From IMG/VR virus record IMGVR_UViG_3300048592_000656: DNA of 46,127 bases. One strand, written 5' to 3'. The notes under the pieces were generated by a model. The model was not told the origin of the DNA, did no database searches, and saw nothing but the letters and a program-made list of their open reading frames with translations. Each line of letters opens with the position of its first letter. The first letter of the stretch is position 1. A program made the translations under genes and the position numbers. Source of the stretch: a virus. Shown in pieces: positions 4,242 through 46,127 of this stretch.

Positions 4242-4267
4242 GTTTTTTCGTACGGACCTGCGGTCCA

Positions 4268-4280
4268 CCTGTCCTATAAT
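4268..4280 (+). promoter_or_regulatory. Promoter-like element CCTGTCCTATAAT (-10 TATAAT 4275-4280)
   Basis: Intergenic, after the PrimPol-helicase stop. TATAAT is followed by 7 nt (gcaattg) and then an in-frame ATG at 4288. A T5-6CGT run lies 27-32 nt upstream, as at 4916 and 8138. Confidence 0.5.
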
Positions 4281-4506
4281 GCAATTGATGGGGGGCGAAA
4301 TGATGACACGGCTACGAAGGATGCGAGAAGAGCGAGGATGGACTCGAGCAGATTTAGCCCGTCGGGCTCGAGTCTCTCTTCGTACTCTATACACCGCTGA
4401 AAAGACGGGTAACATCTCACAAAGGAAGAAAGTCCGAATCGTCCGGGTCTTCGGACTTTCCTGGCAAGAAGTATCCGAGGTCTTTTCCATGGTGGAACAT
4501 GTTTAG
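4279..4506 (+). CDS. XRE-family helix-turn-helix regulator (75 aa; probable real start 4288 or 4300)
   Basis: MTRLRRMREERGWTRADLARRARVSLRTLYTAEKTGNIS is a classic XRE/Cro-CI HTH. The track start 4279 lies inside the TATAAT box; ATG 4288 fits a leaderless start. Confidence 0.75.
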   Translation: MQLMGGEMMTRLRRMREERGWTRADLARRARVSLRTLYTAEKTGNISQRKKVRIVRVFGLSWQEVSEVFSMVEHV

Positions 4507-5497: not shown

Positions 5498-5919
5498 ACA
5501 TCAAAGACATCGACCAAATGGAAAAAGAAGAAGATCATGGCCTCAAAGACAAGCTGGAAATCCTCTGGTGGAGACAGGGCCAGCTTCGATCTCGGTATGC
5601 AGAGATCGAGATCAAGAATGGTTTCCACGTGCCTGCTGGCGTGGCAGATCTCGACAATGCCAAGGATCAGCATTTCCTCAAAGACTTCGCCTGGCGAATC
5701 ACGGAGGAACTCGGCGAGGCAATGAACTGCCTCAAGAACAAGCCGTGGAAGCAGACGCACATGGAGACCGACAAGGAACACTTCGTGGAGGAGGTGATCG
5801 ACGGCTTCCATTTCTACATCGAAATGATGCAATGGATCGGCATCACTCCCGACGACCTCGTCGATCTATATCTCAAGAAGTCTCGAGTCAACAAGTTCCG
5901 TCAACGGAGCGGGTACTGA
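5491..5919 (+). CDS. All-alpha NTP pyrophosphohydrolase (dimeric dUTPase / MazG-like family)
   Basis: ITEELGEAMNCLKNKPWK...EHFVEEVIDGFHFYIEMM...YLKKSRVNKFRQRSGY resembles the dimeric dUTPase (dUTPase_2) pattern: ExxE, KxWK, ExxD, and a C-terminal K..N..R..gY. GTG start with a GAAAGGA SD. Confidence 0.6.
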   Translation: MVNIKDIDQMEKEEDHGLKDKLEILWWRQGQLRSRYAEIEIKNGFHVPAGVADLDNAKDQHFLKDFAWRITEELGEAMNCLKNKPWKQTHMETDKEHFVEEVIDGFHFYIEMMQWIGITPDDLVDLYLKKSRVNKFRQRSGY

Positions 5920-6167
5920 TGAAGCTCAGGCAGAAGCGATATATCTACGAAATCATCTTCAAATCGAAGCAAGGAGAAGTCACAAGAGCCGAGTTCGGTC
6001 CATGCCTCAACCCACCGAAGAGACTCAGCGTCAATGAAGACGGAGTCATTCGGATCGGGGTCTTTTCACACTGGTTCAAGGTGATCGACACAGACCGATA
6101 CTACGCGGTCTACAACGAAGAAGAAAGGGCACAAGTTGCTGACGATTCAGTCCAAGACGCTCTATAG
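5919..6167 (+). CDS. Hypothetical protein (82 aa) inside the nucleotide cassette
   Basis: Internal ATG of track ORF 5568..6167 forming an ATGA-type overlap (TGATG at 5917-5921) with the upstream gene. MKLRQKRYIYEIIFKSK...; no motif recognised. Confidence 0.5.
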   Translation: MKLRQKRYIYEIIFKSKQGEVTRAEFGPCLNPPKRLSVNEDGVIRIGVFSHWFKVIDTDRYYAVYNEEERAQVADDSVQDAL

Positions 6168-6957
6168 GTGCTGGAAAGACCTCAACCGAGGCTTCCTGAA
6201 CCCGGAGCTCGACAACACGGGAATGCTCATTCCCAACCGAGACTTCTCGAGGGTCATTCCACACGTTCGTCTAGTGGCCGAAGAGGGGTTCGGCCTTCCG
6301 TCGAACCTCAACAAGCTGCCTCAGTTTTTCTCCAACTATGATCGGCGAATGACCCTTCTGGGAAATCGCTACATCGATCCCGAACTGTGGCAGGAAGGCG
6401 TCGAACGGCTCGTGGCTCGACGAAGTCGAATGGCACGGACCAATCCGCTCAGCTTCGTCATTCCGTTCCACAGGAGGGCAACCAGCGAGCGAAAGGTACC
6501 GGCTGGTGGTGGGTGCCTGCAGACCATCACGTTCATCTGGGTGAACGGCCGATGGGAACTTCACGTCGCACTTCGAGCTTCCGAGATCACCGCAAGACTG
6601 ATCGCCGACATGCTGTTCGTGAAGCGATCCGTCAATGCCATCGTCGAGGAAGTCAACTTCAAGAAGTGGGAGCCCAAGACTCGGATCGTGTGGGACATCG
6701 CTCTGGCTTCCCAGATGAAGTACTTGGTACCCCTCTACGTCCTGTTCGCCGAAGGAGAGGGTCAAGTCATCAACGAGTACACTTCGGGAAAGCCTGAAGG
6801 TATCTGGCAAAACATTATCTGGGAGCACTTCTGGGATACGTTCATCTATCCCGAACGGATCACGTGGGCACAGCGCCGAAAGTGGTCCGAGAAGTTTCTG
6901 GAAATGACCAGCGCACCCTGGGCCAAGCTGGCCAAGGCAGGAAGGGACTTCAAGTAA
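6136..6957 (+). CDS. Divergent thymidylate-synthase-fold (ThyA-like) paralogue 1 (TTG start; alternative ATG 6223)
   Basis: Core GGGCLQTITFIWVNGRWELHVALRASE reproduces the ThyA active-site spacing C-x5-F-x4-G-x8-R (E. coli [23 protein letters not shown]). The N-terminal half is unlike canonical ThyA. Confidence 0.45.
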   Translation: MLTIQSKTLYRCWKDLNRGFLNPELDNTGMLIPNRDFSRVIPHVRLVAEEGFGLPSNLNKLPQFFSNYDRRMTLLGNRYIDPELWQEGVERLVARRSRMARTNPLSFVIPFHRRATSERKVPAGGGCLQTITFIWVNGRWELHVALRASEITARLIADMLFVKRSVNAIVEEVNFKKWEPKTRIVWDIALASQMKYLVPLYVLFAEGEGQVINEYTSGKPEGIWQNIIWEHFWDTFIYPERITWAQRRKWSEKFLEMTSAPWAKLAKAGRDFK

Positions 6958-7655
6958 TGCGAATCTACAAGACTTTCATCGAAGCAGTGAGCGAGATGCG
7001 ACGGGACCTCAAGGAAATGGGTATCGAGGTACATACCCAGACATACCAAGACAAGCACATCGGTCTCGACCCGAAGATGGCAACCCTCGAGCTCCAGAAC
7101 TACATCTTCACAGTCACGTACCCCAGCCTGGCCGACCTCGAGCCGGTTCAGCCCTGGGCTGATCTGGAATTCGAGGAGAGGGTTCGCCCTCCGCACCCTC
7201 GTGGCGTGAACCCGGGTGAAGCCTACAAGGCTCGAATCGACGTCTGGGAGCAATTCCTCGAGCGCGATGGCTGCTTCGGGTACACTTACTCGGATCGAAT
7301 CAACAACAACGATGGAGCCAGCCAAGTCGATCAAATCGTCAGGGCAATTCAAATCGATCCGAGCTCGAGACAGCTCTTCATGTCGATCTGGGAGCCCGAG
7401 GACCTTTTCAACATCGGAGGAGCTCGTCGAGTCCCGTGCACGCTGGGCTATCACTTCCAGGTTCGACGAGGTCGGCTCAACATCACGTACCTGCAACGAT
7501 CCGCTGACATGGCCACCCACCTTCAGAACGATCTCTATCTGGCTGCCCGGATGCAAGCTCACGTCGCTGAACTGACTGGGTATGAGGTAGGTACCTATAC
7601 CCACTGGTTCGGCTCCCTCCATGTCTTCAAGAAGGACGTCGAGGGCGTATTCTAG
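6957..7655 (+). CDS. ThyA-family enzyme, deoxypyrimidine-monophosphate hydroxymethylase/methylase-like (232 aa)
   Basis: Internal ATG of ORF 6864..7655 (TAATG overlap at 6955-6959). DPSSRQLFMSIWEPEDL, RRVPCTLGYHFQVRRGRLNITYLQRSADMATHLQNDLYL and GSLHVF align with the ThyA motifs sRR.i.s.WnP.d, PC...F.V..G.L....QRS.D......N and gd.H.Y. Confidence 0.8.
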   Translation: MRIYKTFIEAVSEMRRDLKEMGIEVHTQTYQDKHIGLDPKMATLELQNYIFTVTYPSLADLEPVQPWADLEFEERVRPPHPRGVNPGEAYKARIDVWEQFLERDGCFGYTYSDRINNNDGASQVDQIVRAIQIDPSSRQLFMSIWEPEDLFNIGGARRVPCTLGYHFQVRRGRLNITYLQRSADMATHLQNDLYLAARMQAHVAELTGYEVGTYTHWFGSLHVFKKDVEGVF

Positions 7656-7656
7656 C

Positions 7657-8136
7657 ATGGACGCAGTAGATCCGACCTTGGCGAGTCTTTTGGCAGTCGA
7701 CACCCAATGGGATCGATTGCAAAGAGATGAAATGTTCCTCGCCATCGCCAAGGTCGTTTCTCTGCGAGGAACCTGCAGAAGGGCTCAAGTGGGTGCGGTG
7801 ATCGTCAAAGAGAACCGAATCATCTCCACAGGCTACAATGGGTCTGCCCCGGGTATGCCCCATTGCTATGAAGATGGTTGTCTCGAGGACGTGAATGGTG
7901 GGTGCACTCGGACGGTACATGCTGAAGCCAACTCGATTCTGTGGGCAGCGAGGTTCGGGGTATCGGTTGAAGACTCGGTGATGTATTCAACTCATTCCCC
8001 TTGTCTCTACTGTGCAAAGATGATCGTGGGGGCTGGCATCGTCAAGGTCACCTATCTGCACCCATACCGAGACCCCGCTGGGCTTGACTACATGCACAAC
8101 TGTGGGCTACGATACTGTCACCTTCAGGTTGGGTGA
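7657..8136 (+). CDS. dCMP deaminase (CMP/dCMP-type zinc deaminase)
   Basis: VHAEANSILWAA (HAE) and HSPCLYCAKMI (PCxxC) zinc-binding motifs. Start taken at ATG 7657, 1 nt after the upstream stop. Confidence 0.85.
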   Translation: MDAVDPTLASLLAVDTQWDRLQRDEMFLAIAKVVSLRGTCRRAQVGAVIVKENRIISTGYNGSAPGMPHCYEDGCLEDVNGGCTRTVHAEANSILWAARFGVSVEDSVMYSTHSPCLYCAKMIVGAGIVKVTYLHPYRDPAGLDYMHNCGLRYCHLQVG

Positions 8137-8162: not shown

Positions 8163-8175
8163 CCTGAGATATAAT
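8163..8175 (+). promoter_or_regulatory. Promoter-like 13-mer CCTGAGATATAAT (-10 TATAAT 8170-8175)
   Basis: Intergenic and identical to the 13-mer at 13436-13448. ATG 8187 is 11 nt after the -10. TTGGGT lies 18 nt upstream, and a T5CGT run is at 8138-8145. Confidence 0.6.
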
Positions 8176-8186
8176 TGGAGAATCGT

Positions 8187-10799
8187 ATGGCAACAGTAAA
8201 CGGCGATCCTCGATGCACGTTATGTCCCCTTCACAAGACTGCACAGATCGTGTGTCTTATGGGTCGGGGGCCTCTCCCTTGCAAGGTGATGATCGTAGGC
8301 GAGGCACCTGGTCGAAGGGAGGATGACGTTGGTAAGCCCTTTCAAGGTGCTGCTGGGCGCGTTTTGGACGAGGAGCTTTCGCTCAACGATGTATCGAGGA
8401 ATGACGTTTACATCACCAACACAGCCCGATGTAGACCACCCAGGAATCGAACTCCCAAGGCCGTAGAGATTCGTGAATGCGCCATCTGGATGGAGAAGGA
8501 GTTCAAGGAAGTTCAACCCAAGTTCGTTCTCTTGATGGGTCGAACTGCTTTGAAGACCGTGCCATTCTGGAAAAAAGCGAGCATCACGAAGATCCGAGGC
8601 CAGATCTACGAGCACGATGGCGTCTATTACATGGCTACGTTCCACCCTGCAGCCTGTCTGCCTGGAAGAGATACTGGCCGTGATAAGAAGCGCCCGGCAT
8701 TCCGAATCGACTTGAGTACCTTCTTCAAGTTGGTACGAGACGGGAAACCCCAGGAAACTGAGGGATTGAACGTCCAGATAGTTCGGAATGCCGACACTTT
8801 CAACGAGATGATCGACGACCTTCGAGAATGTCCCGATCCCTCGTATGACTTGGAAACCATGGGCCTTCGACCTCACGTGCCAAAGAAAGACATAGTCCTG
8901 GCTGGCTTTGGTACAGAAAAAGCTCAATGGGTCGTACCCATCAATTATCCCACAGCCGACGGAGGCAACAAGGCCCCGTTCAAGACTCGTCGGTCTAGGA
9001 AAATGGCTTGGGAATTGATCGGCGAAGCAATCCACGGTAAAAAGCTCATTACCCACAATGGCAAGTTCGACGCTTTGTGGGCATATACGAGATATGGCGT
9101 GATGCCGTATATTGGCTTCGACACGATGCTTGCTCACTATGTTCTAGATGAGAATTCACCGCACGCTCTCAAGTACCTTGGCCCTCTCTACTTTGGTATC
9201 CATGATTGGTCATTGGATATGGAAGGCGAATGGTGGCTCAGGTATACGCTCAAGGAATCGTCGAAGTATCTAGCTCAGGATCTTTTCTACACTCGAAAGT
9301 TGAAAGGCATCTTGTATGCTGAGCTAAGAAAAGACCCCGCGCTACTCCGATTCTACCGAACAATCCTTCTGCCTGCTTTCAGGCTCTATGCTCGAGTCGA
9401 AAAGGAAGGTATGTTTCTCAATATGGCCAACTACGAGGCGGCCAAATCTCACGCAATGAATCTTTGGGGTAGGGCATGCCTCGAGGTCAATAGAATCGAC
9501 CCCTCCATCAATTGGGGATCGCCGAAGCAAGTAGCCAAAAAGCTATATGAGGAGTTTGGCTTTCCCATCATCAAGACGACAAAGAAGGGAGCTCCGTCGT
9601 CAGATGAGGCCACACTTACCATCTTGGCTGAACCCCCCGACAAACCCATCCATATGTCTATCACTCGGCCAAATGAAAATCCAAAGATATTCGGCTCGAG
9701 AAAGACTATCGAATGGTGGTCCGGATACAAACACGAGATTCCACAAGCTCTTTTGAATCATCGGGCAGCGAAGAAAATGAAGGAGTTTGTGGATTCGTGG
9801 GAAGAACACCAGCAAGGTGGGCTAATTCACCCGTCTTACAAATTCCTCACCGTCACGGGTCGACTCTCTTGTGAAGGTCCTAACATTCAGCAAACGCCTC
9901 GAGAAAAAATCTTGAGGCAATGCTTTGATGCCCCCTTTCCGTTCATCTTCGTCGAGGCCGACCATTCACAGGTCGAACTCCGAGGCGTAGCGATGTTCGC
10001 TCCCGAGCCTACGATGAAAGCCATCTTCATCGCAGGCGAAGATATTCACAGGATGACTGCTCGAGACATCATTGGGATTGCTAACCCTACAGCCGAAGAC
10101 CGAAAGAAAGCAAAGGCAGTCAACTTTGGTCTCATCTACAGGATGGGCTGGAAAAAGCTACGAATCTACGCTCGTACCAAGTACGGAGTTGAGCTTTCTC
10201 CCGGGGAAGCGAAGAAGATCGTCAAGAATTACTTCCTGAAGTACAATCGACTCCGGTATTACTACGAGAAGCAAGAACGAGTAGCTCGGATGAATGGCTA
10301 TGTCCGTCATCCGTTGGGTCGCGTTCGCCACCTTCCCAATATCTTTTCTGAAGACGAACAAGAGCAGAACGAGGCAATTCGACTTGCCATCAATTCCCCG
10401 GTTCAGGGGTTCGCTTCAGATTACAATCTAGCGGGCATGGTTGACGTCGACCTTGAATTCAATCCCACTTGGGATGGTCCGCTACGAATCGTAGGAACGG
10501 TTCACGACTCGGGGCTGATGTGGGTCCATGCTCTTCATCTCCGTCGAATCCTCCCGAGGGTGAAGGAGATCATGGAGCATCCGCCCCGAGTCAAGAACAA
10601 AATCGGATTTACTCCTACGGTGCCTTGGAAGGTCGATTTCAAGATCGGCCCTTGGGGCGCTGGCAAGGAAATCGATCCGATGGCATGGGAAAATTGGGAA
10701 GTCTTCGTCAAAGACATGAAGGAGTCTGGTCAATGGGAACGGTACAAGCAGGCGAGGGAAGCGAAGAAGATCGACTCGTCGTTTCCCTCAGTCGGATAA
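8187..10799 (+). CDS. polA: Family-4 uracil-DNA-glycosylase domain fused to a family A DNA polymerase with 3'-5' exonuclease
   Basis: UDG4: CTLCPL, GEAPGRREDDVGKPFQGAAGRVLDE, ARCRPPRNRTP, FHPAA. Exo: YDLETMGL, HNGKFD, YLAQDLFY. Pol: ADHSQVELRG (motif A), KAKAVNFGLIYRMG (motif B), GTVHDSG (motif C). ATG 8187 is preferred over the track TTG at 8175. Confidence 0.9.
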   Translation: MATVNGDPRCTLCPLHKTAQIVCLMGRGPLPCKVMIVGEAPGRREDDVGKPFQGAAGRVLDEELSLNDVSRNDVYITNTARCRPPRNRTPKAVEIRECAIWMEKEFKEVQPKFVLLMGRTALKTVPFWKKASITKIRGQIYEHDGVYYMATFHPAACLPGRDTGRDKKRPAFRIDLSTFFKLVRDGKPQETEGLNVQIVRNADTFNEMIDDLRECPDPSYDLETMGLRPHVPKKDIVLAGFGTEKAQWVVPINYPTADGGNKAPFKTRRSRKMAWELIGEAIHGKKLITHNGKFDALWAYTRYGVMPYIGFDTMLAHYVLDENSPHALKYLGPLYFGIHDWSLDMEGEWWLRYTLKESSKYLAQDLFYTRKLKGILYAELRKDPALLRFYRTILLPAFRLYARVEKEGMFLNMANYEAAKSHAMNLWGRACLEVNRIDPSINWGSPKQVAKKLYEEFGFPIIKTTKKGAPSSDEATLTILAEPPDKPIHMSITRPNENPKIFGSRKTIEWWSGYKHEIPQALLNHRAAKKMKEFVDSWEEHQQGGLIHPSYKFLTVTGRLSCEGPNIQQTPREKILRQCFDAPFPFIFVEADHSQVELRGVAMFAPEPTMKAIFIAGEDIHRMTARDIIGIANPTAEDRKKAKAVNFGLIYRMGWKKLRIYARTKYGVELSPGEAKKIVKNYFLKYNRLRYYYEKQERVARMNGYVRHPLGRVRHLPNIFSEDEQEQNEAIRLAINSPVQGFASDYNLAGMVDVDLEFNPTWDGPLRIVGTVHDSGLMWVHALHLRRILPRVKEIMEHPPRVKNKIGFTPTVPWKVDFKIGPWGAGKEIDPMAWENWEVFVKDMKESGQWERYKQAREAKKIDSSFPSVG

Positions 10800-34433: not shown

Positions 34434-36038
34434 TTACTCCTCCTTGCTTCCGGTTTCACCGGGAGCCTTTTGTTGCTTGGTCTTTTGTAGCTCTTGCTGT
34501 TGTTTGAGCTTTTCCTCGGCTTCTTTCTTGACCGCCACCAACTCGATCGCGGCATCGAACGAGGGAGCCAGGACCCCTCGGCGAACCAATTCCTTCCAGT
34601 AGGTCTCCTTGCTCAGAAGACCAGATTCAACGGCTCCTCGTAGCTCGCTGATTTCGATTCCGTCGAAGGCTACGAACTCGTCGTAGATTTCCACGAGACA
34701 GCCTTCGGACATCCCCATGTAGTCCGAACCGTCGTCGAAGCAGGCCTCGATGAATCGCTCGAGGTCACGAACCATGGCTTTCAGGTCACTGGTCGTTTCT
34801 GCCGACTTGATACCTGCTTCGGTCGCTGTCGCGGGGGTCGGGCTGGGGCGCTCGATGATGGGTCGCATCCCCAGTACGACGATCTGCTCGAGAATATCTC
34901 GAAGGTCTTGTCGACCCGCTCCGATTGCTGCTCCACTGTGCTCGACGATCTGAAGCTTGGCTTCGGGGTCTCGAGCGGTCAGCATCACATTCGGACTGAC
35001 CTTGATTCGCTCGCCGTTGTCGTCTTTGAAGTCCTCGTCACTGATGCCCGAACCAAACCAGATCGGTACTCGGGCAATGTGAAGAATGTGACGCTGGTCA
35101 CTGCTGGATTGCCAGTGCTCCAGATTCTTCCACGCGAGGTCTTCGAGAAGAGGCCGACCCATCATGAACCCGATCTTTCGGGTGTAGTAGGTCCGAAGCG
35201 GGATTCGATTGACCGATACTTCCCCTTGATCGATCACTGACCACTTCGAGGTGTCGGGGTTCTTCTCCCACAGTTCCCATGTGGTGCGGCCCTCGAACAC
35301 GCGGAGTCGCCCATTTCGACGACGTGCGCGGCGTGTGCCCGCAAGCTCGCGATTGAAGACTCTGATCCTCTCGTATTCCCGTTCTCCGAACTTGCCGTAT
35401 TGCTTTGTGACAGTTTCCTTGATGCGAAGATGGGTGAGGACTTCTTCACCTCGAAATCGCTGGGAGCGCCAGAAGATGATGTTTTCGGGGGGAACGTGTA
35501 CGAAGTAGGGTCGGATATTCAGAGCGCGTTCATCTGCGAGACTGAGCCCAGGGTCTACTGCGGGCATGTCGACCAGGACGTGAGTAACGCCACGGTCGAT
35601 CGCCATCTCGAGCACGCGCTTCGAGAAGGTCGTGATGTGGGTGCCCTCGAGGTCTACGTCATTCTGCCACTCTTTGATCTCGTTCGGGCCTTCTTTGACC
35701 ACAACGTCCCGCTCGAAGGGACGGGAAGCAATGTGGTGAACCGTGTCACCGTATGCTCCGAAGAGAATCGTTCTTTCGAGACGATTGTTGTAGGCTTCCT
35801 CCGATTCACCTTCTTCCTGAGGCAGGTACTTGGTCCGTGCGGCCCTCATCCCGATGGTACCCTCACCCAGGGTCATCGGCAGATGCCACCGTTCCATCAT
35901 CGCGTCGTAGGCGAGTGACTCCCGTGCCACGTCCTCGTTGTTCGGGCCACCGCTACTTGACACCGTGGTCCGATCGAAGCTGATCTTGACCTTGGCGATG
36001 TCTGTCGCGAAGGGTCCGATGTCAGACGGAATGGGCAT
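34434..36038 (-). CDS. Portal protein (534 aa)
   Basis: Size and position immediately after terL (1-nt overlap). Acidic/basic C-terminal tail. Confidence 0.75.
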   Translation of the reverse strand: MPIPSDIGPFATDIAKVKISFDRTTVSSSGGPNNEDVARESLAYDAMMERWHLPMTLGEGTIGMRAARTKYLPQEEGESEEAYNNRLERTILFGAYGDTVHHIASRPFERDVVVKEGPNEIKEWQNDVDLEGTHITTFSKRVLEMAIDRGVTHVLVDMPAVDPGLSLADERALNIRPYFVHVPPENIIFWRSQRFRGEEVLTHLRIKETVTKQYGKFGEREYERIRVFNRELAGTRRARRRNGRLRVFEGRTTWELWEKNPDTSKWSVIDQGEVSVNRIPLRTYYTRKIGFMMGRPLLEDLAWKNLEHWQSSSDQRHILHIARVPIWFGSGISDEDFKDDNGERIKVSPNVMLTARDPEAKLQIVEHSGAAIGAGRQDLRDILEQIVVLGMRPIIERPSPTPATATEAGIKSAETTSDLKAMVRDLERFIEACFDDGSDYMGMSEGCLVEIYDEFVAFDGIEISELRGAVESGLLSKETYWKELVRRGVLAPSFDAAIELVAVKKEAEEKLKQQQELQKTKQQKAPGETGSKEE

Positions 36039-37441
36039 TAGAACCTCACCTCACCACCTGCAACTGCCTTCCTCGCCGGAGCGATGGCAATTGCTGCGGC
36101 ATCAGCCCGATCAGGGCTGGGAAGTTGCCTACGCTTCATCTCTTCTTTGCGTTCGATCACGATGCGGTTTCGAGCATCGTACTTGTACCTGATCTTTGAG
36201 AGTTGCGCGGCCAACTCTTCATCATGGACGTCGATGTCGATCTTGTTGTCCTCGAACTTCTTCCTGAGAGCCCAGAAGATTTCAGCCCTTCTGTTGATGA
36301 AGAGATCCTTGTCATCCGGAGACTCAGCGAAGTTCACAGGCTTGATGATCCGACGCCCGTGCTTTGCTTTCAGCATGTCGACCACGCCAGCGCCAACACC
36401 GACTTCGTCGATCTTGACCTGTGCGGGCTCGTGCTGACCGATCAGCTTCGTGATTTTTTCACAGACCTGAACTGTGTCGAGGCCCTGGCCCGTACCTACG
36501 AGCCTTAGATGGTCGCCACGTCGGAGATAGATGACGGTTTCCGCGTCGCCATACCTCGCGACGTCCACGCCGAACTCTTTGACCCCAGAGGCTTCGATTG
36601 ATCTGGCCTGAGCCCTTTCGATCCAAGAAAGAGGAACGAGAGCATCACTCGCGCCAGGCGGGAATTCGCCCATGACACGAGCATACCAGAAAGCGGAGTC
36701 TTCACCCCACTTCTTTCGCTTCTCTTCCACCCACTCGGGAGTTACCAAGCCATCGACGAAACCCTCCGGGTCCTCGTCTGTGGCAAACTCCTTTGTGAAG
36801 TTCGGCGTGTCGAAGGCCGAGATCTTCATCTTGAACGCCGGAGACCGATTACCGAACTCCGTGTTGAAAGGCGTATCCGGATCAGTCGGATTGCCGATGC
36901 CCAGGAGGATTGCGTGTCGTCCAGTCAGTACACCTTCGCAGGCTTCCCAGATCTTCGGGTCAATGCCACAGGCCTCGTCAAACACAACTAACATGTGCTT
37001 GGCGTGGTGCCCCTGGAATGCATCGGGATCCTCGGTAGAGAATCCCATTGCAAACCAGCCCGTGTCTACCTTCAACTGAGTGGTATACATCTTGCCACCC
37101 AGCGGAATCCTCGAGTTCTCGTAGAGCTTCTTAACCTCTTGCCACAAGATCTTCTCAACCTGGCGGAAAGTAGGCGCGGTTGTCAAGACCCTTGACTCAT
37201 AGAAGCAGAACGCGAACCAGAGAACCGCTACTGCAGCAAGAAAAGTCTTACCAGCTCCGTGGCAAGACCTGATCATTACCCGACGATTCTTGCAGAGTGC
37301 GCGGAGGGCTATCCGCTGTTTCTTCCAAAGTCGGACGCCCAAAATGTGATTGGCGAAGAAGACGGGATCTGCTTGGCATCTCTCGAAGATCGACCTGACC
37401 TCGAGATTAGAGAGCCGGTAACCACCGGGCGCGTAGGACAC
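36038..37441 (-). CDS. terL: Terminase large subunit
   Basis: Walker A-like IRSCHGAGKTFLAAV, Walker B LVVFDEACGI, and a C-terminal nuclease region with conserved acidic residues (FGVDVARYGDAE, IDEVGVGAGV). Confidence 0.9.
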   Translation of the reverse strand: MSYAPGGYRLSNLEVRSIFERCQADPVFFANHILGVRLWKKQRIALRALCKNRRVMIRSCHGAGKTFLAAVAVLWFAFCFYESRVLTTAPTFRQVEKILWQEVKKLYENSRIPLGGKMYTTQLKVDTGWFAMGFSTEDPDAFQGHHAKHMLVVFDEACGIDPKIWEACEGVLTGRHAILLGIGNPTDPDTPFNTEFGNRSPAFKMKISAFDTPNFTKEFATDEDPEGFVDGLVTPEWVEEKRKKWGEDSAFWYARVMGEFPPGASDALVPLSWIERAQARSIEASGVKEFGVDVARYGDAETVIYLRRGDHLRLVGTGQGLDTVQVCEKITKLIGQHEPAQVKIDEVGVGAGVVDMLKAKHGRRIIKPVNFAESPDDKDLFINRRAEIFWALRKKFEDNKIDIDVHDEELAAQLSKIRYKYDARNRIVIERKEEMKRRQLPSPDRADAAAIAIAPARKAVAGGEVRF

Positions 37442-39599: not shown

Positions 39600-39867
39600 C
39601 GCGTTAGTGCGATCGAACGAGTGCAGTATCGAACGCGCGCGAACGAAACGCAAGCGCATAACGCGCGAATTGTTTTATACTCGCGCGTTTTATAAATTCC
39701 AACGTCGCGAACGCGCGAACCGCAATCCATCGTCGTCCGTTCATTTCACGTCCGCTCACGTCATCTCACGTCATCTCATCTCACCTCATCCGCGCGCGCT
39801 CGAAACCTGACCTGACCGGACTAGATCGGGCGCTGGGGCCTGACTTGACCAGACCTCGAGTGAGGTG

Positions 39868-40034
39868 GTTCTCAGGCATGAGTCAGGCGCTCCATCGCGA
39901 TCATGCGAGCCCGTTCTCGGTCTCTCTAGATCTGGAGAGATAAAGTTCTCAGGCGTGGGATGGTTCTCAGTAGCAGGTTCTCGGCGTGGTTCTCAGGCGT
40001 GGTATAGTTCTCAGGCCTGCCAGGCTTTGAGAAC
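39868..40034 (+). repeat. Iteron cluster 1: seven direct GTTCTC(A/G)G copies plus one inverted copy
   Basis: GTTCTC starts at 39868, 39913, 39945, 39963, 39977, 39989 and 40007 (extended consensus GGTTCTCAGGCGTGG). Inverted GAGAAC at 40029-40034. ORF-free. Confidence 0.85.
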
Positions 40035-40045
40035 ATGAACCTGGC

Positions 40046-40064
40046 GGCCTGACTAGACCTGAAG
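40046..40064 (+). repeat. 19-bp direct repeat GGCCTGACTAGACCTGAAG, copy 1
   Basis: Identical to 40170-40188. The pair brackets the 17-bp tandem array. Confidence 0.9.
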
Positions 40065-40078
40065 TAAAGACCGTACCT

Positions 40079-40143
40079 GAAAGTAGCCCGAACTAGAAAG
40101 TAGCCCGAACTTGAAAGTAGCCCGAACTTGAAAGTAGCCCGAG
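40079..40143 (+). repeat. Tandem repeat, 17 bp x ~4 (GAAAGTAGCCCGAACTT)
   Basis: Units at 40079-40095, 40096-40112 and 40113-40129, plus a partial unit at 40130-40143. Copies 2 and 3 are identical and copy 1 differs at its last base. Confidence 0.95.
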
Positions 40144-40169
40144 GCTGAGGTATCAAGCCTAGGTACCGT

Positions 40170-40188
40170 GGCCTGACTAGACCTGAAG
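40170..40188 (+). repeat. 19-bp direct repeat GGCCTGACTAGACCTGAAG, copy 2
   Basis: Identical to 40046-40064. Confidence 0.9.
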
Positions 40189-40204
40189 AGAAGAACGAAT
40201 CGAC

Positions 40205-40240
40205 AATCAATCCCCCGCGTGGATCGCGGGGAGATTGATT
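40205..40240 (-). terminator. Hairpin terminator candidate after the 40240..40629 gene
   Basis: aatcaatcccccgcg / tggat / cgcggggagattgatt: a ~15-bp stem with one bulge that abuts the stop codon. On the minus strand it is followed by the moderately U-rich gtcgattcgttcttctcttc. Confidence 0.5.
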
Positions 40241-40629
40241 TACGGCGCCGGAATGATGCGTTCGGCCGGAACCCCGAAGTCGTTGATCAGTTCCTGAGTG
40301 GATTCGTCGTCGTCGGAGATGATGAGGGCATCAGAGTAGTTGATGACGTAGGAGGTCAGTTTCTTGACGAGATCGAAATCGATTATCTCCTGAGCCTGAG
40401 ATATTTCGTATTCGTGGATGAATACGCCAGATTCCCCCCGGAAGACGGATCTCCAGATCGCGTAGAGGAAGTCCTGACAGTTGGGATAATAGTCGAACCA
40501 GGTGTCGTCGCCTGATACGTCGACGGATCCGGATTGTCTCTGAGCGTCTTGATACGTCTTGACGATTTCGTTCGAGAGGGCCTGATTCTCCTCGGATGAA
40601 GTGAAATCGAATCGTTCGTGATCGAGCAT
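40240..40629 (-). CDS. Acidic hypothetical protein (129 aa)
   Basis: ATG 40629 with an AGGAGA SD; the track ORF extends to 40713. MLDHERFDFTSSEENQ...DDDESTQELINDFG. Asp/Glu-rich, no motif. Confidence 0.6.
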   Translation of the reverse strand: MLDHERFDFTSSEENQALSNEIVKTYQDAQRQSGSVDVSGDDTWFDYYPNCQDFLYAIWRSVFRGESGVFIHEYEISQAQEIIDFDLVKKLTSYVINYSDALIISDDDESTQELINDFGVPAERIIPAP

Positions 40630-40677
40630 GATATGTCTCCTGATTTCGTTTTCGTCGCGTTCGTCGCGACGACGATA

Positions 40678-40690
40678 ACGATATCTCAAG
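40678..40690 (-). promoter_or_regulatory. Promoter-like motif CTTGAGATATCGT (minus strand)
   Basis: 49 nt upstream of ATG 40629, followed by the CG-rich leader tatcgtcgtcgcgacgaacgcgacg. Same class as 41432-41444 and 41934-41946. Confidence 0.5.
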
Positions 40691-40753
40691 TGGAAACGCC
40701 TGTCGAATTCCACCTGCCCGGGCCTGAACCATCATGCCTGCCCAGTACCGAGG

Positions 40754-40835
40754 CCTGATACCTACTGGACTCTAAGGCCTGATACCTACTGGACTCTAAG
40801 GTGATACCAAACCTGATACCTACTGGACTCTAAGG
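40754..40835 (+). repeat. 24-bp repeat CCTGATACCTACTGGACTCTAAGG x3
   Basis: Identical copies at 40754-40777, 40778-40801 and 40812-40835. A 10-nt spacer tgataccaaa separates copies 2 and 3, and a partial 4th copy (cctgat) starts at 40836. Confidence 0.95.
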
Positions 40836-40911
40836 CCTGATCTCGCAAACGCAACCTGACCTGACCAGACTAGCTCATATGCCACAGGATATCCCCCTGA
40901 GGGGACCCTGA

Positions 40912-41133
40912 TTAGAACCGGTGGCGGAGAGATTCGTATACTGCCTGAATTCGCTGGCTGATTCCCTGGCAGAAATCGTCGTCGTCGATCTCATCCAGGG
41001 TCTCATCGATGAGTTCGTTGAGATTTGCGTGGGCAGTTCTTAGACCGTTCTCGGTCCAATCATCCCCGACGTGGAGGAGTTGCTCGAGAGCGGAAGTGCA
41101 GTGTTCGACGAATCGCTTGTTGGCTGAGTCCAT
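40912..41133 (-). CDS. Small acidic helical protein (73 aa)
   Basis: ATG 41133 with a GGAGGG SD, 4 nt after the upstream stop. MDSANKRFVEH...ETLDEIDDDDF. Confidence 0.55.
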   Translation of the reverse strand: MDSANKRFVEHCTSALEQLLHVGDDWTENGLRTAHANLNELIDETLDEIDDDDFCQGISQRIQAVYESLRHRF

Positions 41134-41137
41134 TCTG

Positions 41138-41389
41138 TTACCCTCCAATGATGAAGTTGGATTGTGTGGTGAGGATGTGTACGGTAGCATCCTCAGATCC
41201 CGGATCGATCAGAGCGTTGACGGTGCCCTGATCGTTGAATTCGATCCTGAGGAGATACATTTCAGAGTCGGGGGACCTGAATATCTCGTATGAGGAGATT
41301 CCCCATTCGGGATTGAGCTTGACGGGATGAGATTCAGTCCAGTACGCGATACGTTCGATCGCTTGCTGGATCGTATCGTTTCGTTCCAT
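41138..41389 (-). CDS. Hypothetical protein (83 aa), first gene of a leftward two-gene operon
   Basis: ORF track. GGGGG SD-like sequence upstream, and the promoter-like motif 43 nt upstream. Confidence 0.6.
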   Translation of the reverse strand: MERNDTIQQAIERIAYWTESHPVKLNPEWGISSYEIFRSPDSEMYLLRIEFNDQGTVNALIDPGSEDATVHILTTQSNFIIGG

Positions 41390-41431
41390 GATGAGACCCC
41401 CTTCGCGCGTCGTTCGTTCGACGCGATACGA

Positions 41432-41444
41432 ACGATATCTCAGG
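41432..41444 (-). promoter_or_regulatory. Promoter-like motif CCTGAGATATCGT (minus strand)
   Basis: The minus strand reads caCCTGAGATATCGTtcgtatcgcgtcgaacgaacgacgcg. Its downstream end is 43 nt from ATG 41389. Confidence 0.55.
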
Positions 41445-41465
41445 TGTAATCAAAAGTAAATATCC

Positions 41466-41484
41466 TGAGAAAATTATTTTCTCA
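41466..41484. promoter_or_regulatory. Perfect 19-bp palindrome TGAGAAAAT-T-ATTTTCTCA (operator candidate)
   Basis: 9-bp arms around one central base. Lies in the divergent region between the leftward (41432) and rightward (41603) promoter-like motifs. The half-site resembles the TTCTCA iteron core. Confidence 0.6.
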
Positions 41485-41602
41485 AGCAGGCCCCATCTGT
41501 GCGGGCCTGACTAGTCCTGACCCTAAGAGGCTCTCTCTCATGGGCGGCCTGACCTGACCTGCGGAGAATTGTGGGAGAACAAGTACCCACATCCTGCTCA
41601 GG

Positions 41603-41615
41603 CCTGTGATATAAT
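41603..41615 (+). promoter_or_regulatory. Promoter-like motif CCTGTGATATAAT (-10 TATAAT 41610-41615)
   Basis: Rightward, in the divergent intergenic region. ATG 41624 begins 8 nt after the -10. Confidence 0.55.
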
Positions 41616-41623
41616 ACCTGTCG

Positions 41624-41908
41624 ATGGCCAGATCTCTCGACCTTACGATCCGCACCTGTCCTGAGATGCCCCTTTCTCAGGTGGGCTTGCCGGATAACGC
41701 GCGTAAGATTCAGGTGCCGGCTCCTCAGGCCCCGCACCCCCAGGCGGAATCATTCTCAGCCGTTCTCACGCGCGCAAGCTCGTTCTCGGTTCACAGTCCA
41801 TTCTCGCGCTCCCTCGTTCTCGGAAAACCTGACCTGCCTTCAGGTAAAAGACTATTCTCGGTAGAGCCCCTATGCGAAACCCGTGCCAACAATCTTAAAC
41901 TGGACTGA
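41624..41908 (+). CDS. Doubtful ORF (94 aa) overlying iteron cluster 2
   Basis: ORF track. A leaderless-type ATG sits 8 nt after a -10. However the product is low-complexity Pro/Ser-rich, and its repeated FS dipeptides come from the TTCTC repeats. Confidence 0.25.
   Translation: MARSLDLTIRTCPEMPLSQVGLPDNARKIQVPAPQAPHPQAESFSAVLTRASSFSVHSPFSRSLVLGKPDLPSGKRLFSVEPLCETRANNLKLD
41752..41861 (+). repeat. Iteron cluster 2: six direct (A/G)TTCTC(A/G)(C/G) copies
   Basis: Copies start at 41752, 41762, 41782, 41800, 41816 and 41854, in the same orientation as cluster 1. Confidence 0.8.
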
Positions 41909-41933
41909 AAAATTATTATCACCGGATAAATAA

Positions 41934-41946
41934 CCTGTGATATCGT
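41934..41946 (+). promoter_or_regulatory. Promoter-like motif CCTGTGATATCGT heading a 520-nt ORF-free stretch
   Basis: Same motif class as the two leftward copies. The next convincing CDS starts at 42466. Confidence 0.45.
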
Positions 41947-42465
41947 TACGACGATCGAATAACGTGATCGTAGGACTCAGGAAGCTGATACGACGTTCGC
42001 GTTCGGGAGAATCGCCCTCATACAGGCTTCTCTCCCCTCGTTACGATCTTTGACACCACTGACGTACCCACGCTTCGTCGCGCCTCTCAGGATACGACCG
42101 GGGCTAGCGAACCCCGTTACGATCTAAGAGTCGACGATGGCCCACGTCAGTGACAGCCGGTACGCGATAACGCGATACCCCGACGTTTCCGCCCACGCTC
42201 CCAAGCTCCCGCACCTCACTACGCAGCGTTCACGTAGATGAGATAAACGTCGCGCAGTCATCGCCTCTTACGCTACCCCATACACGCTGGAAGTTTCCTT
42301 TCTTCTTCCCCATCGACGACGAGATGAGAAGACAGTTCTCGCTCGTAGTCGAAACTGAGGGGCACGTTCTTCACAGTCTGGTAACCCGGACACCGAGTCC
42401 GTAGCCCCTTAGTTAGCGGGACTTGACCTACCCGCTCTGAAGATGACAGGTCAATCGAAAGGGGA

Positions 42466-43538: not shown

Positions 43539-43928
43539 ATGCGAACCCGCGCACGCGCGGCCGTTGCAGCAACCAAGGCAGCGACCAAACAGTCGCTTCC
43601 CGCTGCAAATTCCGCGCCTCAACCGGTTCCCATCATCGTCGAGGAGGTTCCGGACAACCCGGCCACCGCCCCCCGACGGAGAATGAGAAGGCAAGAGCTG
43701 GAAGACGCGATCGTCACCACGATCCCGATCATCAGGCGACAACGCCTACATCCCACACAAGGGTCCATCGCACGGGCCCTCGATCAGGATGTCTTCCAGG
43801 TGAGACAGGCTCTACGTCGTCTTCGACGGCGACAGAGAATCTGCTTCACCCTGAAGGAGATCGTTCCGAATCGTCAAACCCGGGTCTACTTCCTGCCCTC
43901 GAAGAAGAAGACCCCAACCAATGAATGA
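43539..43928 (+). CDS. Winged-helix DNA-binding protein (129 aa), paralogue of the island gene 39192..39599
   Basis: GGAAAGGAGA SD. RRQELEDAIVTTIPIIRRQRLHPTQGSIARALDQDVFQVRQALRRLRRRQRICFTLKEIVPNRQTRVYFL. Confidence 0.6.
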   Translation: MRTRARAAVAATKAATKQSLPAANSAPQPVPIIVEEVPDNPATAPRRRMRRQELEDAIVTTIPIIRRQRLHPTQGSIARALDQDVFQVRQALRRLRRRQRICFTLKEIVPNRQTRVYFLPSKKKTPTNE

Positions 43929-44112
43929 CGCCCAGAAACAACGGATCGGGAATCTCTCGTTGATCAGCGCTCTGTTCGTAATCCGGGGCCTCCCGGAGAT
44001 CGAATCATCGGAAGATCTTGACGAACTCATCATCAACTCCGTATCGAGCGCAATCAACATCGAATCGACGGTGATTCAAACCCTCGACGAACTGGAACGA
44101 CGGATGAGCTAA
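43921..44112 (+). CDS. Hypothetical protein (63 aa)
   Basis: ORF track. 8-nt overlap upstream. Confidence 0.5.
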   Translation: MNDAQKQRIGNLSLISALFVIRGLPEIESSEDLDELIINSVSSAINIESTVIQTLDELERRMS

Positions 44113-44202
44113 GCTGAAGGCTCCCGAATGGGCTACCACCCGGTAGTCCATTCATGGGCAATTCAGCCCAACCAGGATAGAAGAAGAGAAAGGAAACGAC
44201 CC

Positions 44203-44430
44203 ATGCGAAACATCAAGGCCACGGTGAAGAAGAACACTCTCCATCTGGAGATCGATCTCTCCACCGTCGTCGATACCAGCGGAGCTGGCAACGACATCAT
44301 CTGTGGCACCAACAACTGGGAGCAGATCGAGCTCCCCGCGGATCACGAACTGTCCGGATTCCGGTACTCGTTCCGTGGGGTGATGGTCCGAAAGGAGGCG
44401 AAGGCGAAGAACCAGAACGCTTCCAAGTAG
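44203..44430 (+). CDS. Hypothetical protein (75 aa)
   Basis: Internal ATG of ORF 44128..44430 with a GAAAGGAAA SD. MRNIKATVKKNTLHLEIDL... Confidence 0.5.
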   Translation: MRNIKATVKKNTLHLEIDLSTVVDTSGAGNDIICGTNNWEQIELPADHELSGFRYSFRGVMVRKEAKAKNQNASK

Positions 44431-44525
44431 TCCCCACTCGATCTGCACACAGATCGAACCGATTCATCCAATCGGTCCCAAAACCTTTGGATGCGCGTAT
44501 CCCAGCGTCGCGTTCGACTGTGCAA

Positions 44526-44545
44526 CCCCCCTATATATAGGGGGG
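44526..44545. promoter_or_regulatory. Perfect 20-bp palindrome CCCCCC-TATATATA-GGGGGG
   Basis: Read directly. Lies in a ~440-nt ORF-free region. TGCACAGC-type repeats flank it at 44546-44553, 44649-44656 and 44660-44667. Confidence 0.9.
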
Positions 44546-44813
44546 TGCACAGCACAGCGACCTGGATCGCATCCGCCGCCCAGTCACAAATCGCGCGACG
44601 CGAATTGCGACACAGGCACCGGATGCAAATTCGATCTCCCCCACGATCATGCACAGCGTTGCACAGCGGCGATTCCCCACCCCGACCTCACAAAACAGGA
44701 AGGGGTGGGTGAACCGCCATTCCGCACACACAACCCGTGTAGGTATCGATAAAGACGGGGGAGAGTTTCGGCCTCGACAACCACACAGGGTTGTCATAGA
44801 ATGGGAGAGTTCA

Positions 44814-44826
44814 GAGAACGGTTCTC
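44814..44826. promoter_or_regulatory. Palindromic iteron pair GAGAAC-G-GTTCTC (operator candidate)
   Basis: 48 nt upstream of ATG 44874. Same hexamer as the two iteron clusters, in inverted arrangement. Confidence 0.55.
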
Positions 44827-44873
44827 CCGTACTCTCTCACTCATCAGAAGAAAAGAAGAGAAGGAAACTTCAC

Positions 44874-45332
<459 letters not shown>

Positions 45333-45393
45333 CGTCGTCGACCCACTCCTCTAGCTCTCCCGGGGTTTCTTCGTCGTTTCACCGGGAGGGCGG

Positions 45394-45436
45394 GGCCGGT
45401 ATCCATCGCGCATTTGGGTACCGGCCCTCTCTTTGC
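45394..45436 (+). terminator. Terminator-like hairpin
   Basis: ggccggta (45394-45401) pairs with taccggcc (45419-45426), followed by ctctctttgc. It is preceded by a second hairpin, ctcccgg...ccgggag. Confidence 0.45.
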
Positions 45437-45444
45437 CTAGAACA

Positions 45445-45481
45445 GGGGGCCTAGCACTAATCCTGCTAGGTCCCCGATTTT
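45445..45481 (+). terminator. Terminator-like hairpin followed by a T-run
   Basis: gggggcctagca (45445-45456) / loop ctaatcc / tgctaggtcccc (45464-45475): a 12-bp stem with one mismatch, followed by gatttta. Confidence 0.55.
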
Positions 45482-45506
45482 AGGACGAAGAGAAAGGAGA
45501 CCGACT

Positions 45507-45674
45507 ATGTGGAAACTGTTCAGCGTGGTGAAGACGGACAGGGGGGCATCGTTTGCTTCCCTGGGCGAATTCTCCACCAAGAGGGAGGCCGTCTCGAAGA
45601 TGGACTCTCTCAGGAAGCCGAAGTCGGCGATCGTCCGCATCGGACGCTCGTACTACTTCGAGACCGCGCAATGA
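45507..45674 (+). CDS. Small hypothetical protein (55 aa)
   Basis: Not in the ORF track (under 60 aa). AAAGGAGA SD 7 nt upstream of ATG 45507. MWKLFSVVKTDRGASFASLGEFSTKREAVSKMDSLRKPKSAIVRIGRSYYFETAQ. ATGA overlap with the next gene. Confidence 0.5.
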   Translation: MWKLFSVVKTDRGASFASLGEFSTKREAVSKMDSLRKPKSAIVRIGRSYYFETAQ

Positions 45675-45877
45675 AGGCCGCGGAGATCAGGAAGATCTTG
45701 GCTCGGGAGTTCAACCTTCCCGAGTCATATGAATTCTTCCACATGGACAAGCGAGAAGGCGAGACTACCGATCAGATGCTCGAACGTCTCTTCGAAGACG
45801 AGAAGCAGATGCATCTTCTTCGTGGAAACGACGACGCTTCTGATGAAGACATCGTCCTCGTTCTCGCTCACGGGTAG
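45671..45877 (+). CDS. Small acidic hypothetical protein (68 aa)
   Basis: Internal ATG of ORF 45509..45877 overlapping the upstream stop (caATGA). MKAAEIRKILAREFNLPESYEFF... Confidence 0.55.
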   Translation: MKAAEIRKILAREFNLPESYEFFHMDKREGETTDQMLERLFEDEKQMHLLRGNDDASDEDIVLVLAHG

Positions 45878-45934
45878 CCGAGAAGGTCTCGGCAGGTAGT
45901 AGTGGAGATTTAACTCAGCGGTTGGCCTCCACTG

Positions 45935-45977
45935 CTATCACTCTAAAGGCCACCACAGGTGGTCTTTAGATTGATAG
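45935..45977 (+). other. Long hairpin (20-bp stem, 3-nt loop) just upstream of the wrap-around gene
   Basis: ctatcactctaaaggccacc / aca / ggtggtctttagattgatag, with one G-T and one C-T mispair. No T-run follows. A shorter hairpin, agtggag...ctccact, lies at 45901-45933. Confidence 0.7.
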
Positions 45978-46000
45978 CATTCCGCTATCAAAACGACGGA

Positions 46001-46127
46001 GACTTCCAGTATGTCAATCATCAAGCTCCACCAGGGTCAGGTCCAGGAGATCCCCTTCAAGCAGGGGGACAATCTCCTGGAGCTCACCAGAAACACGTTC
46101 CACAGCAAGACCTTCACCGTGAGTCAC
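46001..46127. repeat. Terminal direct repeat, copy 2 (exact duplicate of 1-127)
   Basis: Same comparison as copy 1. It contains the 5' end of the CDS annotated at 11..400, so the unique genome is 46000 bp. Confidence 0.97.

Follow-up and report, generated by a model that had tools for sequence, protein, structure and literature searches.

A candidate replication origin centred on a GC-clamped (TA)4 palindrome in a circular phage genome

To our knowledge, replication origins are experimentally known in only a handful of phages, and they are essentially unannotated in uncultured ones. The question of where such a phage starts to replicate is raised by a gap of 443 nucleotides (nt), at 44431-44873, in the viral record IMGVR_UViG_3300048592_000656 of the IMG/VR database; the whole stretch of 46,127 nt is referred to here as the window. 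The gap lies in the early block between two co-directional genes, one encoding 75 amino acids (aa) (44203-44430) and the other 152 aa (44874-45332), and it is occupied by a perfect palindrome, short repeats, and hairpins. The original prediction, made from the DNA letters alone, offered three readings of it, namely a DNA-unwinding element or replication origin, a packaging site, or a regulatory site. Of these, the origin is supported for the 5' part of the gap, a regulatory reading suits the 3' part better, and packaging is not supported. On the comparisons described below, the segment at about 44500-44670 is probably the phage's origin of bidirectional replication. The support comes from comparative genomics, from the co-variation of short repeats (iterons) with the winged helix of a helicase, and from a minimum of the GC skew at 44,736.

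The gap was also predicted to be free of open reading frames (ORFs). This holds in practice, although mechanically ORFs of 73 aa on the + strand and of 103 and 88 aa on the - strand can be drawn in it, and gene 44874 can be extended upstream into it in frame. The mechanical ORFs have neither a ribosome-binding site nor a Pfam or PHROG match, and JGI annotated no gene in this stretch on either of two near-identical contigs.

The core, its iterons, and their recurrence

At the centre of the candidate origin is C6(TA)4G6, a GC-clamped TATATATA (44526-44545). The perfect 20-bp palindrome CCCCCCTATATATAGGGGGG had been predicted at exactly this position, and its perfection extends to 22 bp (44525-44546). 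When one bulged base is allowed, the symmetry is longer than first described and reads CTGTGCA-A-C6(TA)4G6-TGCACAG (44518-44552). This extension reveals a fourth, inverted copy of the iteron TGCACAG on the - strand at 44518-44524, to the left of the core and separated from it by A44525. On the + strand, a TGCACAG copy abuts the right side of the core and is overlapped by a degenerate AGCACAG at 44551-44557 (together 44546-44557), and a distal pair of TGCACAGCG starts at 44650 and 44660 (44650-44667), 10 nt apart and 104-114 nt from the core. The triplicate TGCACAGC of the original prediction thus stands at 44546 and 44660, and its middle copy is at 44650 instead of 44649. There are four copies of TGCACAGC in the window where shuffles give an expectation of 0.88, and three of the four are in the gap. 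TATATA has no other occurrence in the 46-kb genome outside the core. Folding places the core within a still larger imperfect palindrome at 44502-44565, which we propose as the centre of the replication origin, with C6(TA)4G6 as its melting or cruciform site. Folded as DNA, the 51-nt core has an energy of -16.4 kcal/mol (z = -5.4).

The exact 20-mer C6(TA)4G6 was searched for in IMG/VR (1 stretch), GTDB genomes (3), and JGI/ENA metagenomes (38), and the exact-core stretches reduce to about 29 non-redundant instances, the lineage of the window included. A lineage-specific repeat of 6-9 nt flanks the core in about 21 of these 29, where a flanked instance is one with at least four copies of its best 6-mer within 150 nt of the core. 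The copies on the two sides are mostly inverted and point toward each other. The repeat differs from locus to locus, for example TACCCTTA, GTGTACA, ACCCGCA, AGGCTCAA, GGGTCAA, ACCCCGT, GGAACC, GAGACGG, and GTGTCA. The window matches this plan, its own repeat being TGCACAG.

An all-versus-all comparison of the ORFs at the exact-core loci yields one dominant family, every member of which has an AAA_25 ATPase domain by Pfam. The N-terminal primase domain is interchangeable in this family (Prim-Pol, PriCT_2, BT4734-like_N, or RepB_primase) and is missing from forms of about 370 aa. The alignment of the family ends in a common tail resembling a winged helix-turn-helix and closing with a G-x-Y-x-L motif, where Pfam places HTH_24 in the window's protein. 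Members are encoded in 24 loci, the window included, which form 16 clusters below 60% identity; in 13 of the 16 the core is 15-225 nt from the helicase gene, mostly at its 3' end. A second sample, drawn from IMG/VR with the shorter C5(TA)4G5, added 15 new loci. The helicase is present in 11 of them, and in 10 the distance between its 3' end and the core is 20-147 nt.

The association was also approached from the protein side. Relatives of one helicase (that of locus L022; 50-56% identity) were fetched from IMG/VR independently of the DNA motif, and all 11 that were inspected have, directly after the stop codon, iterons, a GC clamp, an AT-rich centre, a second GC clamp, and inverted iterons. 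The clamps vary (C5-8, CCCCCG, GGCCG, GGGTGCC) and so do the iterons (AACCCTCA, AGTCTC[CA], ACAGACA). The centre is (TA)4-5 in 10 of the 11 and an AT-rich non-repeat, TTATGTAATAA, in the remaining one (L053). Given these varying clamps, the identity of the 20-mer in the exact-core set is partly an artefact of the search. The shared rule appears to be structural, a short (TA)n tract between GC-rich inverted clamps. Under the grouping defined here, that of a GC-clamped (TA)n module, the window has a (TA)4 centre, inverted GC clamps, and inverted iterons on both sides, and among its genes is one for an AAA_25 helicase with a C-terminal winged helix. Many carriers of the module, including the window, are complete tailed phages.

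The repeats also change together with the protein. The helicases of locus L159 (6806-7933) and of loci L146 and L156 (L156:604-1731) are 100% identical over residues 1-330, and the nine substitutions between them all lie within residues 331-374, that is, in the winged helix. Their origins (L159:6540-6810 and L156:338-608) are almost identical over the aligned stretch, and the main differences are in the iterons. The same one-base change occurs in almost all of about eight iteron copies, GGGTAC becoming GGCTAC on the left and GTACCC becoming GTAGCC on the right. This is a coordinated co-variation of a DNA-binding module with its sites, a natural specificity switch. It speaks for the repeats as binding sites that the helicase reads through its winged helix, a conclusion that applies to the L159/L146/L156 lineage and would reach the window's own protein by extension.

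The recurrence bears on the possibility that the palindrome is a packaging (pac/cos) site or is recognized by a telomere resolvase or a site-specific recombinase. Its perfect palindromic form, with a symmetric centre of 8 bp, would suit such a role; in one locus (L001) the module is 1.3 kb upstream of the terminase genes, and an integrase is nearby in several loci. The consistent neighbour across lineages is, however, the helicase and not a terminase or an integrase. The window's terminase is more than 7 kb off in a separate transcription unit, and Pfam scans of the 40 larger ORFs of the window reveal no integrase, recombinase, or protelomerase domain. We therefore hold a packaging or recombination site to be highly improbable.

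Taken more widely, the GC-clamped (TA)4-6 palindrome with inverted, fast-evolving iterons could be a pan-phylum origin cassette for self-loading (primase-)helicases of the AAA_25/winged-helix type in tailed phages and prophage-like elements, a tentative proposal that we think slightly more apt to fail than to hold. Its centre is almost always (TA)n and often the identical 20-mer, whereas the iterons and the winged helix change specificity together. If it is true, sequence alone could suffice to predict origins of this class, the locating signature being (TA)n between GC clamps with inverted iterons and an AAA_25/winged-helix helicase, and the origin organization described for phage-inducible chromosomal islands (PICIs) would extend beyond satellites. 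The natural switches of iteron and winged-helix specificity could then be used for studying how self-loading helicases recognize and open DNA. A literature search, limited to searchable full texts, retrieved no paper describing the core and a single string match, a synthetic oligonucleotide, which does not by itself prove novelty.

Outside this grouping, a 9-kb plasmid-like element of Phocaeicola (L143; OY726037.1) encodes a distant AAA ATPase homologue. Near the 3' end of the ATPase gene, at 5560-5700, it has inverted GTTTAGTCCG / CGGACTAAAC around two TATATA(TA)-CACCCG units, which may be a non-clamped relative of the module. Mobilisable elements of Bacteroides likewise encode distant (27%) AAA ATPase homologues with a different, non-clamped TATATA arrangement.

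The initiator, GC skew, and competing readings

The predicted initiator of this phage is a 650-aa protein encoded on the + strand at 2289-4241. It combines a RepB-type primase (PF16793, 1.5e-9), an AAA_25 helicase of the RepA/DnaB-like kind (PF13481, 1.7e-29), and a C-terminal winged helix-turn-helix (HTH_24, PF13412, 6.4e-5), the last at residues 593-640, after the AAA_25 domain. In PHROG it belongs to phrog_3123, with matches to DnaB-like helicases; a sequence search of the Protein Data Bank (PDB) returned no match. By BLAST, its helicase domain groups with those of five loci (L014, L016, L027, L038, and L040), all of which abut the exact core. A second origin directly 3' of the helicase gene was not found: the features of 4242-4300 are limited to a promoter-like TATAAT and a small helix-turn-helix gene.

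How the parts could work together may be outlined as follows. The primase-helicase would bind the TGCACAG iterons via its C-terminal winged helix and, as the iterons face each other across the core, helicase rings would assemble on each side of it. The (TA)4 tract between the C6 and G6 clamps would melt or extrude as a cruciform, providing single-stranded DNA for the loading of the rings, and the fused primase domain would then prime synthesis. We infer that the helicase of this phage uses this copy of the core. Loading of a double ring is suggested by analogy with the Rep proteins of SaPIs (pathogenicity islands of Staphylococcus aureus) and PICIs. Melting at (TA)4 is likewise conjectured by analogy, as is winged-helix binding to the iterons in this phage, for which the co-variation in other loci also speaks.

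The base composition of the genome provides an independent view. The window opens and closes with the same 127 nt (1-127 = 46001-46127, an exact direct repeat), which identifies it as a complete circular assembly of 46,000 bp; the repeat itself is probably a k-mer overlap. On this circle the cumulative GC skew is lowest at 44,736, within the gap and at a distance of 190 nt from the core. It peaks on almost the opposite side, at 23,416; the two points are 21.3 kb and 24.7 kb apart in the two directions. These turning points are distinct from the places where transcription switches direction (about 15.4 and 39.7-42.4 kb). Among + strand genes the skew is negative in five of six to the left of the gap and positive in 18 of 23 to its right. 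The four blocks defined by strand and replichore fit a simple additive model in which, by our own arithmetic, replication contributes no less than transcription. GC skew thus supports an origin in the gap to a moderate degree. If the origin is where we place it, replication would be likely to start at about 44.5 kb and to end at about 23.4 kb.

Several observations weigh against this placement. The core is about 3.7 kb upstream of the helicase gene on the circle, with some ten small genes between them. To its left there is only one exact iteron (CTGTGCA, 44518), whereas SaPI origins have at least two on each side. The amplitude of the skew is small (about 0.02-0.05), and to the right of the origin the picture from third-position skew is mixed. 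Other intergenic regions of the early block are rich in hairpins too (z about -9 at 45850-46000), so that hairpins alone are not diagnostic. Far richer repeat arrays are present at 39.8-42 kb, an alternative or second candidate for an origin. Finally, most relatives of the helicase are found without the module. IMG/VR was searched with two sub-alignments of the helicase family as profiles, and among 80 loci encoding the closest relatives of the window's helicase a (TA)n palindrome within 6 kb was detected in one only, L063. The close relatives L002 and L005 have no core near the helicase gene, L002 having TTTTCCAAA repeats instead. Neither the whole genome of the cultured relative Pseudomonas phage PMBT14 nor the complete genome MW202455 contains a (TA)n palindrome. 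Because the module is so rare in the clade of this helicase (phrog_3123), its presence here may be a lineage-specific acquisition.

It could accordingly be asked whether core and iterons, though a genuine origin module, are in this genome a passenger or a relic. In such a case they would have arrived by recombination and would be used by the helicase of another element, for example a satellite or a co-infecting phage, or not at all, while the working origin is elsewhere, for example at 39.8-42 kb. The distance from the rep gene, the few iterons, the lack of the module in nearly all relatives, and the rich arrays at 39.8-42 kb are all compatible with this. It is, however, the gap and not 39.8-42 kb that contains the skew minimum, and the gap is conserved in two further metagenome contigs with its pairing preserved by substitutions. 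Moreover, the exceptional locus L063, whose helicase is 43% identical to that of the window, has ACCTTACGA iterons in both orientations around a (TA)6 palindrome 1.8 kb from the helicase gene; a site apart from the gene, with a (TA)n centre and flanking iterons, can thus serve this clade. On balance, we find a passenger module quite improbable.

The two contigs, L003 (JGI 3300048838) and L004 (JGI 3300048839), are short, near-identical to the window, and too similar to it for covariation analysis. Over 44468-44600, L004 differs from the window only in an indel-rich patch at 44500-44512 and in a CGA to AAT change at 44596-44598, and the predicted pairing is kept in both. The first alters the left arm of the extended palindrome while its pairing with GCGACCTGG on the right is retained. 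The second falls in the loop of a long imperfect hairpin with arms GCATCCGCCGCC / GGCACCGGATGC (44566-44629), located between the proximal and the distal iterons, and leaves the stem intact. Both contigs break at the gap: L003 begins at 44550, the right edge of the palindrome, and L004 stops at 44468, inside the second of the two hairpins at the 5' end.

These two hairpins follow the upstream stop back to back, as predicted, and have perfect stems: TCGATCTG-caca-CAGATCGA (44438-44457) and ACCGATT-catcc-AATCGGT (44458-44476). A further hairpin, CCCACCCCGACCT / AGGAAGGGGTGGG, is at 44676-44709. In all, the gap contains nine perfect stems of at least 7 bp, compared with 0.23 +/- 0.54 in 1000 dinucleotide shuffles, none of which reached nine, and 0.2% of the other 443-nt segments of the genome match this count. 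Compared with shuffles, the fold of the whole gap has a z of -10.2 (+ strand) and -11.5 (- strand).

So stable a fold, in 440 nt without a credible gene, could indicate a structured non-coding RNA encoded in the gap. The opposite strand, however, folds at least as well, so that there is no strand preference; the similarity of the two strands fits inverted repeats acting at the level of DNA and gives no sign of a strand-specific RNA. An Rfam scan of the window gave no match at the gathering threshold and, at 44100-46127, only chance-level matches (E >= 0.1); a tRNA scan found nothing. The comparative pattern, in addition, links the core to a DNA-binding helicase and not to a conserved RNA. We give very little credence to such an RNA.

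Alternatively, the whole region might be transcriptional punctuation, with termination or processing of the upstream early transcript at the hairpins and the palindrome, and with the promoter and operators of the next gene in the remainder. Its location between two co-directional early genes would be natural for such a role. A promoter-like site at 44774-44802 and an operator-like palindrome are present, the homologue of gene 44874 in L002 has its own promoter and terminator, and other intergenic gaps here are hairpin-rich as well. A terminator stem is indeed available, but its tail is TGCACAGCAC, and no T-run follows any + strand hairpin. For want of a T-run, the hairpins at 44438-44476 are not canonical terminators, and a scan of the + strand of 43800-46127 for intrinsic terminators gave no terminator-like site. 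A terminator, furthermore, has no need of exactly (TA)4 between C6 and G6. Punctuation leaves unexplained both the switch in GC skew and the occurrence of the same core, with inverted repeats that co-vary with the helicase, in dozens of unrelated elements. As an account of the whole gap we consider it unlikely.

The 3' third and the remainder of the genome

The 3' third of the gap, 44774-44873, is suggested to be the promoter, operator, and leader of gene 44874. The promoter-like site, TCGACA-17-TAGAAT on the + strand (44774-44802), agrees with the consensus at 10 of 12 positions. It is the best sigma-70-like match in 39.6-46.1 kb, the total of promoter-like matches being not above chance, and its first hexamer TCGACA recurs at 4924 in an 11/12 match. 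The hairpin GACAACC/GGTTGTC sits in the spacer of this site; it exists as predicted, at 44776-44795 and not at 44777-44796. Just downstream of the predicted transcription start is the operator-like palindrome GAGAAC-G-GTTCTC, confirmed at 44814-44826 and nested in an inverted repeat at 44799-44842. It consists of two inverted copies of GTTCTC, a motif that is arrayed at 39868-40012 and 41750-41860. The leader with the ribosome-binding motif AGAAGAGAAGGAAAC and the ATG of the 152-aa gene follow on the + strand (44854-44876); AGAAGAGAAGGAAAC also precedes the genes at 44203 and 45507. A purine-rich leader and ribosome-binding motif, AGAAGAGAA(A)GGA(A/G)AC, is found upstream of three consecutive early genes, at 44182-44199, 44854-44868, and 45486-45500.

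The 152-aa product of gene 44874 has a Lys/Ala-rich N-terminus, a small conserved domain, and a run of about 55 Asp/Glu/Ser residues at its C-terminus, and it may function as a DNA mimic or be nucleoid-associated. No Pfam match reaches the gathering score for it. The only homologue detectable is in L002, where an early protein of 64 aa stands alone, is 48% identical to the small domain, and forms a unit of its own with a TTGACA-17-TATAAT promoter and a terminator. Another search with the 152-aa protein returned nothing but this protein. When 43900-46127 was compared by BLAST with cultured phages, the sole match was of low complexity, in the acidic tail of gene 44874.

Two further gaps of the early block are very strongly structured, 45850-46010 (z about -9), with the 12-bp-stem hairpin CTAAAGGCCACC-aca-GGTGGTCTTTAG, and 45325-45500 (z about -5). 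The 8-mer CTGTGCAA of the left-arm iteron has a third genomic copy at 1656-1663, 43 nt upstream of a promoter-like site (1706-1735) that precedes the operon containing the primase-helicase. This copy could be an autoregulatory site or could be due to chance, about 1.4 copies being expected.

Genes on the + strand extend from about 42.4 kb across the junction as far as 15.2 kb, and the - strand structural genes occupy 15.6-39.7 kb, with a tail tube, a Gp13-like capsid protein, a portal, and the large terminase (36038-37441, - strand). Besides the protein with RepB_primase, AAA_25, and winged helix-turn-helix domains, the + strand block encodes a nucleotide kinase, a thymidylate-synthase homologue, a dCMP deaminase, a family A DNA polymerase fused to uracil-DNA glycosylase (UDG), a PD-(D/E)XK nuclease, an AAA_24 protein, a DUF669 protein, and an SNF2 helicase. 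The gene order is that of Pseudomonas phage PMBT14 (Knuthellervirus), whose primase-helicase is 38% identical. At 4979-8136 and 8175-10799, the nucleotide kinase, thymidylate-synthase homologue, dCMP deaminase, and UDG domain fused to DNA polymerase occur as in PMBT14. This gene set suggests that the phage DNA may contain a modified pyrimidine; a modified thymine, if present, would alter the melting of the (TA)4 core.

A repeat-rich, gene-poor field at 39.7-42.4 kb separates the late block from the divergent early block. It contains about seven GGTTCTCAGGCGTGG-like units (39868-40012), four tandem copies of GAAAGTAGCCCGAACTT (40080-40145), three copies of GGCCTGATACCTACTGGACTCTAAGG (40745-40840), and about six copies of [AG]TTCTC[AG]G (41750-41860). 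Scattered CCTGACCTGACC and CCTGACTAGACCTGAAG motifs and three small - strand ORFs are also found within 39700-42400. The GC skew has no turn there. The field may represent regulator sites, a partition site, or a second origin.

Comparison with known systems

Several known initiators share parts of this design. Like plasmids of the IncQ RSF1010 type, the window pairs a RepB'-type primase (PF16793) with a RepA-type helicase (PF13481), here within one protein. Unlike in RSF1010, no separate RepC-like domain appears in Pfam scans of the 40 larger ORFs of the window, and DNA binding would be provided by the fused winged helix. The iterons of RSF1010 are about 20 bp long and direct, in contrast to the inverted iterons of 7-9 nt of the window type, and they are accompanied in its oriV by GC-rich and AT-rich segments. 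Also described for oriV are ssiA and ssiB, palindromic sites of single-strand initiation (PMC8567376). The alpha protein of phage P4 provides another parallel, as the window's protein is likewise a single polypeptide with a primase, a helicase, and a C-terminal DNA-binding domain. In P4, the C-terminal domain of alpha binds the origin, recognizing short repeated octamers (ori and crr). Unlike the window's protein, alpha has a helicase of superfamily 3 (SF3) and a Toprim-type primase, and we know of no GC-clamped (TA)n palindrome in the P4 ori. In simian virus 40 (SV40) and the papillomaviruses, large T antigen and E1, respectively, are directed by inverted sites around a centre to load as head-to-head double hexamers beside an easily melted AT tract or palindrome. 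These are SF3 helicases of eukaryotic viruses, without sequence or family relationship to that of the window, and the likeness is one of mechanism only.

The closest described system is the origin of the SaPI/PICI type, found in the SaPIs of S. aureus and in Gram-negative PICIs such as EcCICFT073. These origins have two opposed sets of iterons around an AT-rich melting site, usually immediately 3' of rep, and the Rep protein is a self-loading helicase that reads the iterons by a C-terminal winged helix, with the primase fused or adjacent (PMC9371898; PMC6092414). They are replication-proficient in plasmid tests (PMC9371898; PMC6092414), and in the PICI study pri-rep-ori is sufficient for plasmid maintenance. 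The related loci found here show the same combination of opposed iterons, AT-rich centre, winged-helix helicase, fused or adjacent primase, and origin 3' of the gene. The window itself has the opposite orientation of the iterons and the AT centre, but a single exact iteron on the left where SaPI origins have at least two per side. In position it departs from the SaPIs, with its core 3.7 kb upstream of the gene, whereas 13 of the 16 exact-core lineages and 10 of the 15 loci of the second sample have the SaPI-like arrangement. The winged-helix domain is present in the window's protein, and its SaPI-like specificity would follow from the co-variation between L159 and L146/L156 and not from that protein itself.

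The differences from the SaPI/PICI system concern the ATPase, the centre, and the carriers. The SaPI Rep ATPase is AAA+ (SF3/MCM-like), whereas the one considered here is AAA_25, with a RecA fold of the RepA/DnaB-like kind; a phage RecA-fold protein linked by HHpred to the AAA_25/RepA/DnaB families is a 5'-3' helicase (PMC8965321). The centre of a SaPI origin is an AT-rich stretch, in contrast to the sharply defined, GC-clamped (TA)4-6 palindrome described here. The SaPI/PICI carriers are satellites, whereas the carriers here include complete tailed phages. If our reading is correct, the origin plan of these satellites is also used by complete tailed phages with a different class of helicase.

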